Positions 1-14,523 of a stretch of 64,000 nt of DNA are shown here, piece by piece (positions within the stretch are counted from its first letter, which is position 1; the number at the start of each line of letters is the position of its first letter). Below the pieces are notes generated by a model that searched no databases, was not told where the DNA came from, and saw only the letters and a list, made by a program, of their open reading frames with translations. Position numbers and translations under genes: made by a program. Origin of the DNA: Bacteriovoracaceae bacterium (GTDB lineage Bacteria; Bdellovibrionota; Bacteriovoracia; Bacteriovoracales; Bacteriovoracaceae); assembly GCA_018649885.1 (NCBI GenBank), contig JABIHA010000068.1, forward strand, positions 1 through 64,000, written 5' to 3'.

Positions 1-315
1 CCTAAGAAACCAGGACCTAAGAAACCAGGACCTAAGAAGCCAGGACCTAAGAAGCCAGGACCTAAGAAGAAACCTGGTTATAAAAAGCCAGCTCCTAAAA
101 AGAAACCTGGTTATAAGAAGCCAGCTCCTAAAAAGAAACCTGGTTATAAGAAGCCAGCTCCTAAGAAGCCAGCTCCTAAAAAGAAACCTGCTCCTAAGAA
201 GCCAGCTCCAAAAAAGAAGCCTGCTTATAAGAAGCCAGCTCCTAAAAAGAAACCTGCTCCTAAAAAGAAGCCAGGTGCTAAAAAACCAGGGAAAAAGAAA
301 AAGAAGAAAAAGTAG
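1..315 (+). CDS. 3' end of a gene (5' part outside window) with a Lys/Pro/Ala-rich, histone-H1-like repetitive tail
   Basis: Frame 1 is open from base 1 to TAG at 313-315 and reads PKKPG x4, YKKPAPKKKPG repeats, ending KKKKKKK. Synonymous variation between repeats; terminator follows. Absent from the ORF track because there is no start codon. Confidence 0.85.
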   Translation, partial: PKKPGPKKPGPKKPGPKKPGPKKKPGYKKPAPKKKPGYKKPAPKKKPGYKKPAPKKPAPKKKPAPKKPAPKKKPAYKKPAPKKKPAPKKKPGAKKPGKKKKKKK

Positions 316-320
316 CTATA

Positions 321-353
321 AAAAAGGCCCCAGAACTGGGGCCTTTCTTTTTT
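321..353 (+). terminator. Rho-independent terminator, probably bidirectional
   Basis: AAAGGCCCCAG-AA-CTGGGGCCTTT inverted repeat with a T-rich tract after and an A-tract before, between convergent genes. Confidence 0.85.
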
Positions 354-379
354 AGATTATATTCTAATTTCTATTGATT

Positions 380-676
380 TCAGCAACCACTTCTATGGTA
401 TTTGTAGACTTTGTGGCAAAGTTTATAACTAAGCCTACCGCATTTCATTTTTTTCTTCGTTCCATTATCACAGAATTTAACCATTAAACTTTCTTGCCCT
501 ATTTTTCTACGAGTACAAGACTCCTTTATCTCGCTTGCGTGTTCTAATCTAGATTCTAGTTTTGAAATCTCACCAGTTAAGCTATTACATCTCGACTTCA
601 TTGCAAAAGCCGTACTTGATATAAAAAAACTACTGCAAATAAATAGTGATGAGACTAATAGAAAACTACGATTCAT
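380..676 (-). CDS. small secreted Cys-rich basic hypothetical protein
   Basis: Signal peptide ending AFA, six Cys in the mature part, GGGGAG RBS upstream. Confidence 0.7.
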   Translation of the reverse strand: MNRSFLLVSSLFICSSFFISSTAFAMKSRCNSLTGEISKLESRLEHASEIKESCTRRKIGQESLMVKFCDNGTKKKMKCGRLSYKLCHKVYKYHRSGC

Positions 677-8154: not shown

Positions 8155-9390
8155 TTAATTTACAATCACTTCCATATTCATAAAAAGAGCGGGACTTTCA
8201 TCAATTCCTGAAAATTGATCGGAGGAAATCTCCATAAGCTCATCACCAAACATCTTCTGAACGCTCGTTTTTAAGGTAATCTGTGGAAGTTTCCCAACAA
8301 CCTCTCCAGCGCGCATCATGAAACCAGCTTGAACAGGTGTGGAGTAATCACCAGTATCAGTGAAGTCTCCTCCTGCTGCTATTTCAACAATAAGACACTC
8401 AGGAAGGGACTTTAAAATATCAGTGCACGACTGCTCACCTGGACCAATGATAATTTTATTAAAACCAAGTGATACGCCTGAGTTGTAGGCCCTTTGCCCA
8501 TTGCCCGTAGAAGCAGAGTCATATTTACTGGCATTCCGAAGGTCACATATAAGATTTTTCATCACTCCATTTTCAACAAGACCCAGGCTTGGGTTATCCC
8601 TGACGAATCCTTCACCATCAAATAGGCCCATGGCATTTTTCTCTGGATCATAGCTCACATCAAAAATACTGAGTTTTTCATTTAAAATTTTATTTCCCAA
8701 ACATCCCTTATAGAGACCAATATTTTTTTGATAAGTATCAATTCGAAAACTCTCAAGGAGTTTTCCATAAATACTGCTTTGCTCAACAAAAACTACTGGA
8801 TATTCTCCATTTTTGACGTCTGCTACACTAGTGAATTTCTTTAGAAAGGGAACATAGCTATCCAACTCATTTCCCAACTCAAATTTTCCAATATTTCCTG
8901 CTCCAAAATACCCATCCATAATGCTGGCTGAGCTCTTATGCTTGTAAATAAAGTACCAATCAAACTCATCAAAAGTGAGCTCTTGAGAGATCTCATCACC
9001 AATTTGTTGAGATTTAGATATTCTCGAAAGATTGGCCTTGCCTGAAAATATAAACTCTGGAAAAAGTTTCTTTAACTTTTCTTTTTGCTCTTTATAGCTC
9101 TCGTAAAAATCTTTTTCAGCATCACTGCTTTCCGTAATTACAGATTTACTAACTGACCGAGCTGTCCCAAGGTCATAAGAATAGGGCATACCTGCCTCAG
9201 TATTGGAAATCGCTTGCTCGAAAAGCTTCTCGCTTTCAATGTCTCCCACAAAAGAGGACGAAAATACCTTCCCATCTTTAAATACTCTAGCACCAGATTT
9301 TAAAATATTTTTATTTCTAATGGAAGTGATCTCATTACCAGCCACTTCAATGGATAATTCTTTTTTTCTAACTCTAATTATATCTCTCAT
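8155..9390 (-). CDS. pmbA: PmbA/TldE family metallopeptidase modulator
   Basis: FDGEG and STGNG motifs, no HExxH; directly downstream of tldD. Confidence 0.8.
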   Translation of the reverse strand: MRDIIRVRKKELSIEVAGNEITSIRNKNILKSGARVFKDGKVFSSSFVGDIESEKLFEQAISNTEAGMPYSYDLGTARSVSKSVITESSDAEKDFYESYKEQKEKLKKLFPEFIFSGKANLSRISKSQQIGDEISQELTFDEFDWYFIYKHKSSASIMDGYFGAGNIGKFELGNELDSYVPFLKKFTSVADVKNGEYPVVFVEQSSIYGKLLESFRIDTYQKNIGLYKGCLGNKILNEKLSIFDVSYDPEKNAMGLFDGEGFVRDNPSLGLVENGVMKNLICDLRNASKYDSASTGNGQRAYNSGVSLGFNKIIIGPGEQSCTDILKSLPECLIVEIAAGGDFTDTGDYSTPVQAGFMMRAGEVVGKLPQITLKTSVQKMFGDELMEISSDQFSGIDESPALFMNMEVIVN

Positions 9391-9400
9391 TACCAGACCT

Positions 9401-10786
9401 TTAGCTAACCATCATTTTACTTATTAATACTTTTGAACCACCAAAGCCTACAAGCAGTGGGTGTTGCTCCATTTTCCCGCAACCTCCAAAAGAGCTACTT
9501 AAAAGCTCAAAGTCAGTTGTACACCCCTCTATTAAACCTAGTGTTTCAAAAACCGAGCCTGAAAGAACCGAGGCCTTAACTGGCTCAGCAATTTTTCCAT
9601 CTCTAATCATATAACTTTTAATTGGTGCTATAGTAAATGTGCTCAAACCTGATCCATGCCTAAAGTCTTTTACATAAATCCCTTTTTTTACACTCTTAAT
9701 CAATTCGTCCAAACTTTTTTTGCCTGTTTCAACATAGGTATTTGTCATCCTTACAATAGGTTCAAACTCAAAGTTTATAGACCTACCATTTCCTGTAGGG
9801 GCTTCATTAAAAACTGAAGATGTGTACTGAGAGTGTAACCTTCCGGCTAAGATCCCATCTTTTATTAGATAAGTTTTTTGAGTCGGAAAACCCTCATCAT
9901 CGATTGGGCAGTAGCCACTTGTTCCTTTTTCGGCTCCATAATCTACAATTGATAGGTTTTCATGAGCAATTTTGCTACCTATCTTCCAGTCCTCGGTTGC
10001 CTTGTCATCTCCTAGCATAAAGTCAGCTTCAGATTTATGGCCAAAGGATTCATGAGCAAAAACACCTACAACACTACTCTCCATTACAACAGGGTAACTA
10101 CCTGCTTCGACAGTGGATGCCTCTAAAAAATCGTGCCCCTCAATAATCTCGCTCTTAAAATGTGCACTCTTTTCTGCTAGGGTCTCAAAACTATCTGAGT
10201 AGGACTTCACTGAGTCATCAAACCTTTTATCACCATCTAAAATGCTATAACTTATCACGCTGCCACACTGGTTAAAGTCATAAGTGAAACTAACGTCTGT
10301 AGAAGATTTAAAGTATTTCATCTTAAAGTGATCTACGTAACGAACAAAGACCCCCTCAAGCTTTTCAAATGATTTGACCATTTCAAAATACGATCTACAA
10401 AATTCTATTTTTTTAGAAATAGGAACCTTTCTCACATCTTTTTCTGAATACTCTAGTATCGTGTTTACGCTGGCTTCGGTGTTATAAGGCACAAGATTTT
10501 CATTCTGAGAGGTAATCCCGAAATGATCAGCTTGAGCTATAAGTGAGTTTATTTCTCTATCGAGTGAAAATATATCGGTGGTTGAGCCGTAATACCACAT
10601 CCCCTGACTATACACTCTTATAAATGCTCCGAGACTAGGTTTAACCTCGCAGTTGACCAGCTCGTAGTCATCAAAAACAATGGTAGTGTTTGTGGTGTCC
10701 TCAATGCGAACATCACAATATTCACACTGAATTTTTTTTAAATCTAACTCGTTTAAGTAATCTTCAATTTCCATGGTATCCTCCAT
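9401..10786 (-). CDS. tldD: TldD family metalloprotease
   Basis: HESFGHKSEAD, DDEG, TGNGR, RMTNT and GGCGK motifs. Confidence 0.9.
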   Translation of the reverse strand: MEDTMEIEDYLNELDLKKIQCEYCDVRIEDTTNTTIVFDDYELVNCEVKPSLGAFIRVYSQGMWYYGSTTDIFSLDREINSLIAQADHFGITSQNENLVPYNTEASVNTILEYSEKDVRKVPISKKIEFCRSYFEMVKSFEKLEGVFVRYVDHFKMKYFKSSTDVSFTYDFNQCGSVISYSILDGDKRFDDSVKSYSDSFETLAEKSAHFKSEIIEGHDFLEASTVEAGSYPVVMESSVVGVFAHESFGHKSEADFMLGDDKATEDWKIGSKIAHENLSIVDYGAEKGTSGYCPIDDEGFPTQKTYLIKDGILAGRLHSQYTSSVFNEAPTGNGRSINFEFEPIVRMTNTYVETGKKSLDELIKSVKKGIYVKDFRHGSGLSTFTIAPIKSYMIRDGKIAEPVKASVLSGSVFETLGLIEGCTTDFELLSSSFGGCGKMEQHPLLVGFGGSKVLISKMMVS

Positions 10787-10923: not shown

Positions 10924-10953
10924 AAAAAAAAGCCCCCAATTAATTGGGGGCTT
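10924..10953 (-). terminator. Rho-independent terminator
   Basis: AAGCCCCCAATT/AATTGGGGGCTT palindrome with a U-tract on the minus strand, after the stop at 10983. Confidence 0.8.
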
Positions 10954-10982: not shown

Positions 10983-11627
10983 TTATTTACAGCTTCTAGA
11001 GACAAGTAAATCTGCTTCCAGATCACCATCGAATTTTACGCTATCAAGAAGTGGATATTCCATTTTCATTTTGTCTGGATTCCATTTTGCGTTTTTCATA
11101 TCAACAATAACAAGCTCAACTCCAGTGAATTCTAATGCCACTGTGTCGATGAATTTTGTGACTTTAACCTTTCCAGCTCTCTCTTCTTGATCTGGGTGAA
11201 GAGTATAAACTTTTAAGTTACACCCATCTTTTGAATGAATTAGTGAAAAGGATGGAAATGGAGTCTGTCCTTTTGAAAGGTCATAAGTTTTACCAGCTTC
11301 AATTCCTTGACATGCATAAGGCATAGTTTTTTCACAAAATCCTAGGGTCACCACTGAATAAGATTTTTTTGCATCGGCCGTGCACTTATCACCTGGCTTT
11401 TTTCCACATTTTGGATTTTCAATATCATCAATATTGAAGTCCATTGTTGATCCAACTACATTGATTAGGGTAGTTGTTCCCATGGGGGACTTGAGTGCCC
11501 ACTTTGTAACAAGTTTAGGTGTAGCTAGTTTTCCAGAAACTTTTTTAAGATTAAAATGTCCCTTGGTATCACTTGAAAAGGCAGGTAATGCCATCATTGT
11601 GCAGAGTAATAAAATTGCGATTCTCAT
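10983..11627 (-). CDS. secreted hypothetical protein
   Basis: GGAGG RBS before ATG 11627, signal peptide MRIAILLLCTMMALPAFS, several Cys. Confidence 0.75.
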   Translation of the reverse strand: MRIAILLLCTMMALPAFSSDTKGHFNLKKVSGKLATPKLVTKWALKSPMGTTTLINVVGSTMDFNIDDIENPKCGKKPGDKCTADAKKSYSVVTLGFCEKTMPYACQGIEAGKTYDLSKGQTPFPSFSLIHSKDGCNLKVYTLHPDQEERAGKVKVTKFIDTVALEFTGVELVIVDMKNAKWNPDKMKMEYPLLDSVKFDGDLEADLLVSRSCK

Positions 11628-11736
11628 TATTAAACCTCCATTAAATTTAGATTGGCATGAATTTAGAATGAGTTCAGTGGATAAGTCAAAGAATGAGTGG
11701 GGCGAGCAAGAACGCATCGCCCCGCAAAAATATTCT

Positions 11737-13161
11737 TTATAATAGATTCAATGCGTCTTTATAACTCAAATTCTGCTTAACTAGTTGTTCTGACTTACTA
11801 CCCACAGTCGCCATGGCCTTTTTGAAATAGCTCCTGGTGATGTAGAGGTCTTTTCCTATCCAAGAATCATCAAGATAAGCCATTTGTTTGGCCATAGAGA
11901 TCGCCTCAATGATATCAGCGCCACTTAGCCTTTCGGAAAGCCCTGCAAGCCAATCAGTGGTAACTCCGGCTTCCCATGCCACCCCTTTAGTTGCATAGCG
12001 AGTAAAAAACTTTTTCCGGATACCGTGAGCTGGGTAGCCATAGAAAAAATGAACCCCAAGTCTTCCAGATCTTAAAAGGGCACCATCTAGATCTTTCTCT
12101 TTATTAGTGGTTCCAATAACAAGCACACCATTTGACTCAGCAACTCCATCCATTTCGTTTAAAAACTCATTGAGGATTGAAGCCTTGAAAGTCGACTTGT
12201 TTCCACTAGAGTTTCCTCCCAACTTTCTCTTTTTAATTCCCAGAAGATCAATATCTTCCATAAAGATAATAGAAGGTGAAAGATTTCTAGCAGCTGAAAA
12301 GAGTGCTTTAACAGTAGAGATATCAGTTAAATGCCTGGCAGTTACAGTGATTAGAGTCGATTTCTTTTTGAGATCATTATGTAAAATTTGTGAAATCAAA
12401 ATTTGACCTAAAAATGACTTTCCAGTTCCCGGAGGCCCAGCAAGAACAACTCCTCTTTTTAATTTTATTCCATACTTACTAAGTGCAGGCAGGTTTTTAA
12501 TAAAATTAGAAGTAGAGTTCATACTCTTAATTTTTAATTCTGGATCTAAAATCAAATCATCCCAAGTGTATTTATAGTTCCCGACATTTTCTAGAAAACG
12601 ATAAGTCCAAATCCAGCCCATTTTCACTCGGTGAATAACAGCATTTTTGTAAATATTCTTGGTGGTGAGATAATTAAAGACATCACTCATAAATTCTTTG
12701 GCATACTTAAAATCTTTTTCTGCATAATAGATTCCTACACCATACTCTACATCGTTAAATGGAGATATTCTGTAAGGTGTAGCTATAAGCTTAATAGTAC
12801 GCCCACCGAATTTCTTAGAAATGAAATAATACCCTTGTTTGAGGACATATTTTCTATCTCCAAAATTATTGGTCTCTATATGGTCTGTTGGGAAGGCAAC
12901 CCTATTATTGTAATTGTCAAAGTTTGCCATCTCCTTAACAACCCAACCATTCACAGGATTTGTGATGTAATCATCGAGGGCAAATTGGGCCAGTCGGTAA
13001 AAATTCTTATAGGCTTTTTCTTTTAAATAAAGCCTTTCTTGTAGAGGCTCTCCAAGCCAATAGCTGAAAGCATCAATTTTGTTTAAAAATTTGTCACTGT
13101 CCGCATCACCAAAAGCAGCAAACGAAGACACAAATGTTAAAAGTAATAATATTTTTTTCAT
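11737..13161 (-). CDS. AAA+ ATPase with N-terminal signal-peptide-like sequence
   Basis: GPPGTGKS Walker A, IFMEDID Walker B, TTN..LDGALLRSGRL SRH; N-terminus MKKILLLLTFVSSFAAFG; AAGGAG RBS. Confidence 0.9.
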   Translation of the reverse strand: MKKILLLLTFVSSFAAFGDADSDKFLNKIDAFSYWLGEPLQERLYLKEKAYKNFYRLAQFALDDYITNPVNGWVVKEMANFDNYNNRVAFPTDHIETNNFGDRKYVLKQGYYFISKKFGGRTIKLIATPYRISPFNDVEYGVGIYYAEKDFKYAKEFMSDVFNYLTTKNIYKNAVIHRVKMGWIWTYRFLENVGNYKYTWDDLILDPELKIKSMNSTSNFIKNLPALSKYGIKLKRGVVLAGPPGTGKSFLGQILISQILHNDLKKKSTLITVTARHLTDISTVKALFSAARNLSPSIIFMEDIDLLGIKKRKLGGNSSGNKSTFKASILNEFLNEMDGVAESNGVLVIGTTNKEKDLDGALLRSGRLGVHFFYGYPAHGIRKKFFTRYATKGVAWEAGVTTDWLAGLSERLSGADIIEAISMAKQMAYLDDSWIGKDLYITRSYFKKAMATVGSKSEQLVKQNLSYKDALNLL

Positions 13162-13177
13162 TGTTTACTCCTTTTAA

Positions 13178-14506
13178 TTAAAGCCTGTGGCTCTTTTTAA
13201 ATTTAATGGCTTCGGTTATAGTTTCATTAGAGAGCTCTACTTTATTTGTCCCTCTATCAACTTTTCCCTCTCTATAAGCTTTCTCAATGGCAAGATCAAC
13301 GAGCTCCTTAATATCTGCTCCAGTCATCCCTTCAAGTTTATTAGCAAGCTTATAAAAATCAACACCGTCTACTTTTGATTTTCCAGAAAAAAGCTCTAAT
13401 AGCTTCACTCTTTCTTCAATCATAGGAAGGCCAACTTCATAATGAAAACCGAGACGCTTAGATCTTGTAAGAGCTGGATCAATAAGCTCGAAATAGTTGG
13501 TAGTACCAATTGTTAATACACCTTCAAGTTTTTCGAGACCACTGAGTTGTTGCATTAACTCATTTTTTACGTCTGCTCTATCCGTTCTATCTGTACCAGC
13601 AATCAAATCGACATCTTCAAAGAAAACAACTGTTGGACTAAGGTGTCTGGCAATTTGATAAATATTTCTAACATCAGTCACACGCGACACGTGCCTAGCA
13701 GAAACGTGAATATAGGTGATTTTATTTTTATAAGATTTTTTAAAGATATTTGAAATAATGACCTTTCCGATAAAACTCTTACCTGTTCCAGGAGGGCCGT
13801 AAAAAAGCACGCCTCTATTCATTGGAAGACCGTGTTTTTTCCAAGTATCTCTGTCGTATCTATTAATAAATCCATCAACACTTTTAACAATTTTGCTCTT
13901 GGCTTTGGCATCGAAGATAAAATCATTCCATGAAAATCTTAAATCATCCACGCCTTGATAAAATCCAACAGTGCCGTTGTACTCAAGAACTTTTCCTTTA
14001 TAGATTGAGTCAGCTTTTAGGTTTTTATCTAAGTCTTGTCTCAACATATGAGAGTATAATTGCCCCTCTTTAGTCGTTTTGTAGTAAACTCTGAGGCTGT
14101 TTCCAGAATTGAGCCAAACCACCATTCTTGAGTTAAGATTTTTATTCTTATGCTGTATAAAGTAATAAGCTGCCACCACTCTATTTTCTGTGACTTTGGG
14201 TGCCTGATTAATTTGTTGAATAGTTCCAGTCTTTGGCCATGGAACATATTGATTGTACCTTCTGTCCCAAGTATAGTTCATTACCTTTTCTACTAACCAA
14301 TTGTCTTTTTTCCCCAACAAATTCTGAAGACCTACCGAAGCTCCATTATTGTAAATAGTAGAGTAACCATAGCTTGTTGTTGAGTAGTAATTTTTTAATG
14401 TCATCCAAGTTTTTTTTGCCTGGTTGTAATCTGTAAAATCGATACTTTGTGAATACAGCGGGACGGACAATACCAATAAGAGTATGGCCGTTAATTTTTT
14501 AAACAT
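13178..14506 (-). CDS. AAA+ ATPase with N-terminal signal-peptide-like sequence
   Basis: GPPGTGKS, VFFEDVD, TTN..IDPALTRSKRL; N-terminus MFKKLTAILLLVLSVPLYS; AAGGAG RBS. Confidence 0.9.
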   Translation of the reverse strand: MFKKLTAILLLVLSVPLYSQSIDFTDYNQAKKTWMTLKNYYSTTSYGYSTIYNNGASVGLQNLLGKKDNWLVEKVMNYTWDRRYNQYVPWPKTGTIQQINQAPKVTENRVVAAYYFIQHKNKNLNSRMVVWLNSGNSLRVYYKTTKEGQLYSHMLRQDLDKNLKADSIYKGKVLEYNGTVGFYQGVDDLRFSWNDFIFDAKAKSKIVKSVDGFINRYDRDTWKKHGLPMNRGVLFYGPPGTGKSFIGKVIISNIFKKSYKNKITYIHVSARHVSRVTDVRNIYQIARHLSPTVVFFEDVDLIAGTDRTDRADVKNELMQQLSGLEKLEGVLTIGTTNYFELIDPALTRSKRLGFHYEVGLPMIEERVKLLELFSGKSKVDGVDFYKLANKLEGMTGADIKELVDLAIEKAYREGKVDRGTNKVELSNETITEAIKFKKSHRL

Positions 14507-14523
14507 ACTATCTCCTTAATTAA

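Follow-up and report, generated by a model that had tools for sequence, protein, structure and literature searches.

The A/B Locus

The DNA analysed here, referred to as the window, comprises 64,000 nucleotides of contig JABIHA010000068.1 from a Bacteriovoracaceae bacterium (assembly GCA_018649885.1) of the phylum Bdellovibrionota, and the element of interest is a pair of adjacent genes, A and B, that encode AAA+ ATPases with signal-peptide-like N-termini. Gene A (13178..14506) encodes a protein of 442 amino acids (aa) with a predicted signal peptide, an N-domain of the YjoB/Bcs1 type and an AAA+ module, and gene B (11737..13161) encodes 474 aa with the same architecture; both genes and all of their features lie on the minus strand. 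A first-pass annotation, made from the sequence alone, had described two paralogues 16 bp apart, and both open reading frames (ORFs) are confirmed, with 31% identity across 369 residues, N-domain included. The good ribosome-binding sites that it saw are also present, as AAGGAG Shine-Dalgarno sequences at 14512..14517, 5 nt ahead of the A ATG, and at 13168..13173, within the 16-bp A-B gap and 6 nt ahead of the B ATG.

The A/B DNA also occurs in contigs from three other DNA runs with no differences listed, which rules out an assembly artefact. From one RNA run, two short contigs map to A and B and none to the flanks, too few to show transcription. Promoter-like sites are no more frequent than expected (15 observed vs. 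18.2 expected). A GC-rich hairpin directly 3' of B (11699..11723, minus strand; -18 kcal/mol), which lacks a T-run and is absent from the terminator scan output, is possibly the end of the A-B transcript.

Predicted Export Signals

Both proteins of the window begin with a basic n-region, a hydrophobic core and a cleavage motif of small residues. By a rule test, the signal-peptide-like N-terminus of A spans residues 1 to ~19-21 (14444..14506; pLDDT ~50 at residues 1-20) and that of B residues 1 to ~15-18 (13108..13161; low pLDDT at residues 1-20), the cleavage sites being approximate. The home-made rule asks for a basic n-region, an uncharged hydrophobic window and small residues at -1 and -3. 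Applied across the family at the recorded start, with four A fragments and one duplicate left out, it is passed by 17/27 A and 20/22 B proteins, rising to 19/27 and 21/22 when alternative starts are allowed. None of the 249 controls passes at the recorded start (0/87 cellular relatives, 0/69 viral relatives and 0/93 CDC48-like proteins), and with alternative starts a single cellular relative does, with no viral or CDC48-like protein passing. The A proteins that fail appear by eye to have mis-called starts or to lack the basic residue alone.

Several further features of these N-termini are consistent with cleavable Sec signals. Basic residues precede the hydrophobic core, acidic and neutral ones predominate among the ten that follow the predicted site, and the small-residue cleavage motif is conserved in an N-terminal segment that otherwise varies in sequence and spacing. 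No lipobox, twin-Arg motif or membrane-strength segment after residue 40 was found in any A/B family member by rule-based test. In all 15 A/B genes read from DNA, the in-frame starts that lie past the signal and ahead of the first conserved Trp are devoid of a ribosome-binding site, and 12 of the 15 have a Shine-Dalgarno-like site, as defined by the script's pattern, at the signal-bearing start. The fold of A begins at residue 26 in the structural alignment, straight after the signal. Export of A and B by a Sec signal is thus predicted with high confidence. The Sec-type N-termini noted in the first-pass annotation are therefore conserved across the family, and its concern that the true starts might lie downstream is not borne out.

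Fold of the N-Domain

The N-domains occupy residues ~26-167 of A (14006..14431), where structural alignment indicates a YjoB/Bcs1 N-domain fold, and residues ~28-165 of B (12667..13080). They are rich in Tyr, as had been observed at the outset, with 9.9% and 10.6% in A and B vs. 3.6% genome-wide. The description of the domain as unrecognised holds for sequence, in that it has no Pfam or NCBIfam match, including BCS1_N of Pfam, but does not hold for structure. The predicted models (pLDDT 90 for A and 85 for B) point to YjoB of Bacillus subtilis as the closest solved structure. For A, YjoB is the leading match over the full length, at Foldseek rank 1 (TM 0.56; VIA Z 19.9, 342 residues aligned, root-mean-square deviation (rmsd) 6.0), with residues 26..439 of the model superposing on 31..404 of 7w42; for B, YjoB is at rank 4. 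Bcs1 also aligns across the N-domain (6ukp: Z 16.6, 308 aligned, rmsd 13.6; also 9gsn), in line with the kinship to BCS1 that had been suggested from the Walker B motif and the missing pore loops. A Bcs1-specific N-domain received an Atlas feature score of 0.76, which is a lead only. A sequence search of the Protein Data Bank (PDB) returned CDC48-type proteins only. Comparison of N-domain profiles links A to B with a probability of 99.4, and A and B to their signal-less relatives with probabilities of 94-98. Taken together, the models place A and B among AAA+ ATPases of YjoB/Bcs1 fold.

The AAA+ Module

The AAA+ module of A (13187..13999) carries Walker A at residues 237-244, Walker B E297/D298/D300, sensor 1 N337 and Arg fingers R348/R351, and that of B (11788..12639) carries Walker A at 242-249, Walker B E302/D303/D305, N353, R364/R367 and D338-G339. 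It matches PF00004 (E 2e-22), and Pfam and NCBIfam give generic AAA only, far below the cut-offs of named families. The reported ED(I/V)D Walker B is found as FEDVD and MEDID in the window pair, and the modules are intact throughout the family: Walker A, Walker B and sensor 1 are present in 25/25 A and 22/22 B proteins and the Arg-finger pattern in 24/25 and 21/22, so that the catalytic motifs are retained among proteins only ~40% identical. Also upheld is the absence of an aromatic pore loop 1; alignment to a CDC48 protein places a deletion of this segment after SARH, and the aromatic pattern occurs in none of the 47 A and B proteins. The module has the Walker A/B, sensor-1 Asn and Arg fingers of the classic AAA clade without the pore loop 1 of threading unfoldases. 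It also lacks the FtsH features, having neither a protease domain of the M41 type nor, past residue 40, a segment of membrane strength.

A and B differ from each other in fixed ways. A QQLSG-type motif is present in 25/25 A and 0/22 B proteins, a DG motif in 0/25 A and 22/22 B proteins, and the distance from Walker B to the next helix is 14 residues in every A and 15-27 in B. A-type proteins thus have a short pore loop 2 and NELMQQLSG, and B-type proteins a long, variable pore loop 2 and NEFLNEMDG. In AAA rings, these motifs face the neighboring subunit and the pore. Because A and B differ in fixed ways at such positions, they likely form a hetero-ring or other hetero-oligomer. The differences would fit an alternating arrangement in which an asymmetry like that of YjoB has become fixed in two genes, and the obligate two-gene layout argues for an even number of subunits.

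Family and Distribution

A search with A returned 26 family members that share 35-56% identity with it, ahead of CDC48 proteins, among the best 120 of 1253 matches, and a profile search added five A-type and 20 B-type representatives among the best 150. In what follows, G000 denotes the source genome, Lnnn loci and Cn contigs. G000 holds three A/B pairs, in the window, on C7 and on C5, that are 39-62% divergent. A precedes B by 3-17 bp at all eight loci that extend past A (three in G000, L001, L002, L042, L044, and L045); L043 ends inside A and is not informative for order. Eleven further pairs are implied indirectly, by a match in length between the longest contigs of A and B proteins. In a quick tree of 100 AAA-domain rows, the A clade (SH-aLRT 100) and the B clade (97) are sisters (99); A+B joined CDC48 with weak support (94), with YjoB and Bcs1 sequences not among the rows. 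The A and B distances correlate over 18 pairs (rho 0.54, 0 of 2000 shuffles as high). The sister clades, the fixed order and the correlated distances indicate that a single ancestor acquired the signal and was duplicated, with A and B travelling together ever since.

The pair occurs in 3/401 genomes of the phylum, from three families, and in 0/100 other genomes of the family of G000. L001 (Bacteriovoracia) and L002 (Pseudobdellovibrionaceae) both belong to Bdellovibrionota, while the other 36 loci of the L001-L038 search are distant relatives, mostly from Dehalococcoidia. These and the phage relatives (L003-L038, L119-L198) share a homologous N-domain and an ED-type Walker B with A and B; they differ in having no signals, many of the phage forms are long fusions, and they are themselves uncharacterised. 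Signal-less proteins with this N-domain and with acidic N-terminal tails are common in Dehalococcoidia metagenome-assembled genomes (L003-L038). In phage relatives such as L120, L127, L140, L147, and L164, the ATPase is fused into long head proteins; L120 matches head maturation protease PHROGs, and 47/69 viral relatives are longer than 700 aa.

Further ATP-Using Enzymes with Predicted Export and the Membrane Protein M

A and B are not the only candidates for exported ATP-using enzymes in G000. With a lipobox clause included, 12 of its 105 Walker A-bearing ORFs pass the signal rule, namely the six A/B genes, four Clp/Hsp100-type ATPases and two apparent false calls. Two of the four signal-bearing Clp ORFs (C1:35337-37535 and C17:11242-13506; L217 and L218) have a CUB domain between their AAA modules and adjoin exported S8 proteases, and the C17 copy has a lipobox. 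CUB domains are typical of extracellular proteins. The Clp-CUB family is found in 11/401 phylum genomes, all three A/B genomes included; of 11 copies tested, 8 pass the signal rule and three begin, as judged by eye, with a hydrophobic stretch. The remaining two Clps lie in a cluster on C140 (16467-26663; L216:4468-14664) that consists of a signal-peptide Clp (907 aa), an exported vWA gene, a signal-peptide Clp (792 aa), an exported trypsin, the membrane protein M described below, a repeat gene that is presumably RCC1-like, and an NTT-type transporter. The two Clps thus flank the vWA gene and precede the trypsin. A similar Clp-vWA-Clp run is found on C10 of another genome, G194 (L321), with two more signal-bearing Clps on its C1 (L322). 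A third kind of enzyme is represented by signal-peptide PPDK_N (ATP-grasp) proteins (L258:9113-10684, L259:11226-12707, L260:6300-13786, G000:C7:20212-23067, and L325:7500-10490), in which a SHVQLL His-swivel-like motif precedes the ATP-grasp domain.

M is a basic, moderately hydrophobic protein of 210 residues without a signal, with invariant Asn, Thr, Glu, Arg, and Gln in its helices. It is encoded at L216:11234-11875 (the C140 cluster), L001:10794-11432 and L245-L257, and the protein collection holds 20 homologues. M adjoins most Clp-CUB genes and directly follows B in L001. A profile built from these ten copies, the one of the C140 cluster included, finds M in 12/401 phylum genomes at 13 loci, including 10/11 Clp-CUB genomes and all three A/B genomes. 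With G000 set aside, M is present in 9/10 of the other Clp-CUB genomes (hypergeometric p 8e-16) and in both other A/B genomes (7e-4), p-values that are overstated because the genomes are kin. Eleven of the 13 M genes touch a gene for an exported ATP-using enzyme and the remaining two are one or two genes away, an adjacency that is partly by construction since ten of the 13 loci built the profile. The three M loci outside the profile set all lie by signal-bearing PPDK-type ATP-grasp proteins, one of which passes from a downstream start only. The neighbors of M are thus of three unrelated kinds (the A/B ring, Clp and PPDK-type), and because ATP is what they share, M becomes a candidate ATP carrier by guilt by association. 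That the A/B genomes also carry other exported ATP-using enzymes together with M hints at a supply of ATP to the periplasm by the cells themselves. In genome G018, M lies inside a run of six exported leucine-rich-repeat genes.

Two other proposals were considered and rejected. A resemblance of M to Mpv17/PMP22 gained no support, since PF04117 misses M, and M has no internal repeat. An ATP/ADP translocase of the NTT/TLC type was also considered as the source of ATP; homologues of the C140 copy occur in 12/401 genomes and share none with the M or Clp-CUB sets save G000. Weak TLC-family matches occur in 6/13 genomes checked, and no exported ATPase lies beside a TLC-family gene at five loci outside G000 (L219, L275-L278).

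Genomic Neighborhood

Phylogeny and the A-then-B order speak for the pair as a unit, but the conservation does not extend to wider neighbors. Among 142 ORFs of nine regions, no conserved neighbor was found within ~8 kb of A/B save for a generic LysR match. M next to B in L001 fell outside this comparison, since M is in no other A/B region. Upstream in the window, a DNA alkylation repair gene (PF08713; 14524-15246, minus strand) ends 17 bp ahead of A and may share its transcript here; it is not conserved at other A/B pairs. Downstream, at 10983-11627 (minus strand), lies a 214-aa signal-bearing orphan with no family match and no paralogue in the genome, followed by a strong terminator-like hairpin (10930-10953) and by a divergent TldD/PmbA gene pair (8155-10786, minus strand). 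The orphan had been put forward as a secreted partner of A and B, a role that is not supported, as it has no homologue beside any other pair and is parted from B by the hairpin 3' of B. Defense and phage families gave generic AAA matches only. The anti-phage system IetAS (IteAS), in which an AAA ATPase gene adjoins one for an S8 protease, was likewise rejected, since it matches the AAA domain only, at 70 and 41 bits vs. a cut-off of 510, and no neighbor family is common to the nine A/B regions.

Discussion

The explanation that best accommodates these observations is a periplasmic, alternating hold-and-release ring fed with the ATP of the cell, a reading to which a probability of about 0.5 can be assigned as a whole. 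A and B would be exported by Sec, lose their signals and come together in the periplasm as a ring of alternating subunits, even in number and probably A3B3, with the N-domains capping a chamber above the AAA ring. Lacking pore loop 1, such a ring would not thread unfolded chains. A folded or partly folded client may instead be held by the empty or ATP-bound ring and released on hydrolysis, as in YjoB; by this analogy, there is an even chance that A and B act in this manner. The cell itself would provide the ATP, with the basic inner-membrane protein M as the most likely route, although the odds that M is the supplier are no better than balanced. M would also serve the exported Clp ATPases and dikinase-like enzymes of the same genomes, and the likely client pool is the host's own large set of exported proteins.

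The analogy to YjoB draws on its published characterization (PMC9565160), which describes a hexamer with a chamber, crystallized as three asymmetric dimers with ADP in one chain each, and an N-domain that resembles that of Bcs1. According to the same work, YjoB holds clients without nucleotide or with AMPPNP and lets them go when ATP or ADP is present. Its Walker B mutants continue to suppress aggregation, the Km is 13.6 uM, and the partners reported for it are cytoplasmic proteins (PMC9565160). A and B are like YjoB (PDB 7W42/7W46) in their N-domain, their single AAA module and a Walker B with Glu before Asp. They differ in sharing only ~20% identity with it and in being two specialised, signal-bearing paralogues, whereas YjoB is a single gene forming a homohexamer with cytoplasmic partners. 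Bcs1 (PDB 6UKP, 9GSN) shares the related N-domain fold and the lack of an aromatic pore loop 1, its pore-loop residues being reported as not conserved (PMC7994207). This mitochondrial protein is described as a homoheptamer that translocates a folded Rieske protein, with an uncleaved helix anchor and its ATPase in the matrix (PMC7994207), whereas the N-terminus of A and B looks cleavable and places the ATPase outside. Because the single-gene, signal-less definition of YjoB and the anchor topology of Bcs1 both fail, A and B are filed under neither, though they would work most like YjoB.

Several observations weigh against the proposed ring and its ATP supply. Export, while well supported, is a prediction by a home-made rule, and this rule is permissive, as 1308/4106 ORFs of this genome pass once the lipobox clause is added. 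The Phe of the YjoB central loop (256-FTS-258) is absent from A and B, so the mechanism may not carry over. M adjoins A/B in only 1/8 DNA loci (L001) and in one indirect case (contigs both 10405 long), it has no Pfam, PDB-sequence or Atlas match, and one genome, G273, has a signal-peptide Clp-CUB without M and without a TLC-family match. The NTT-type transporter of C140, for its part, does not track the exported-enzyme set.

An alternative possibility, which seems unlikely, is that the ring is secreted onward into the prey periplasm or bdelloplast, where it would run on prey ATP and remodel prey proteins or free carried cargo. The host phylum is Bdellovibrionota, the exported Clp genes here adjoin exported trypsin and S8 proteases, and an ATP transport system is reportedly on record for Bdellovibrio. 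The behavior described for YjoB (PMC9565160), holding without nucleotide and releasing with ATP or ADP, would also suit such a role. The rarity of the pair in its phylum and its absence from the rest of its family do not fit a core predation tool, and prey ATP leaves unexplained why M tracks three kinds of exported ATP-using enzymes. The co-occurrence of the pair with M, which lacks a signal peptide, favors the cell's own ATP over that of prey. It is similarly improbable that the proteins are a periplasmic nucleotide-independent holdase, or a sensor of scavenged ATP, with M serving as a membrane dock or client channel rather than as ATP supplier. The YjoB Walker B mutants lend this some plausibility (PMC9565160), as does the precedent of an AAA+ protein on a membrane pore in a secreted compartment, Plasmodium PTEX (PMC7355975). 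All catalytic motifs are nonetheless kept despite the divergence of the proteins, the Km of YjoB lies far above the nanomolar range, and one dock is unlikely to suit three unrelated folds, whose shared factor is ATP.

The remaining alternatives keep the ATPase in the cytoplasm, and both are highly improbable. In one, anticipated in the first-pass annotation as a membrane-anchored translocase, an uncleaved anchor of the Bcs1 type would let the protein move folded proteins across the inner membrane. The N-domain fold common to Bcs1 and the missing aromatic pore loop 1 (PMC7994207) are in keeping with it, but the charges indicate an N-in/C-out orientation, the cleavage motif is kept, and the A/B genomes also encode exported Clps with a CUB domain. 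In the other, the least probable of all, the signals are artefactual, true starts lie downstream, and the proteins are cytoplasmic YjoB-like chaperones, as the signal-less cellular and viral relatives with the same N-domain might suggest. This is largely refuted by the Shine-Dalgarno-like sites at the signal-bearing starts, by the absence of any start with such a site in the stretch from the signal to the first conserved Trp, and by a fold that starts right after the signal.

The periplasm is described as devoid of ATP, with chaperones that are therefore ATP-independent (PMC4791398). No bacterial exported AAA+ ATPase was found in the accessible literature, though subscription papers and supplements, which were outside its scope, could hold one, and the main text of the Bdellovibrionota genomics literature checked makes no mention of AAA, ATPase, Clp or signal peptide. 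The nearest bacterial parallel is Lig E, an ATP-using enzyme with a conserved signal peptide (bioRxiv 10.64898/2026.03.22.713542); it differs in being a single ligase thought to use scavenged ATP, and its preprint is not seen to describe a ring motor or linked membrane protein. HSP101 of Plasmodium PTEX is an AAA+ motor beyond the plasma membrane, in the vacuole, but it is eukaryotic, belongs to the Clp clade and is described as threading cargo with Tyr pore loops through EXP2 (PMC7355975), so the likeness is an analogy only.

A conserved exported AAA+ ring, together with exported ATP-using enzymes and a candidate carrier, would break the rule of an ATP-free periplasm. It is conceivable, though somewhat short of probable, that some scattered members of Bdellovibrionota maintain a compartment beyond the inner membrane that is powered by ATP. 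M, an undescribed carrier family, would export ATP into it, and several machines that are normally cytoplasmic would have been re-addressed there, namely the A/B ring, Clp/Hsp100 proteins bearing a CUB or another additional domain, and dikinase-like enzymes. The A/B ring would then be a bacterial periplasmic AAA+ chaperone, possibly a cage that takes up cargo while empty and lets it go wherever ATP is available. If M does export ATP, it would represent a new nucleotide carrier family and would offer a means of running ATP-dependent folding or chemistry in the periplasm.

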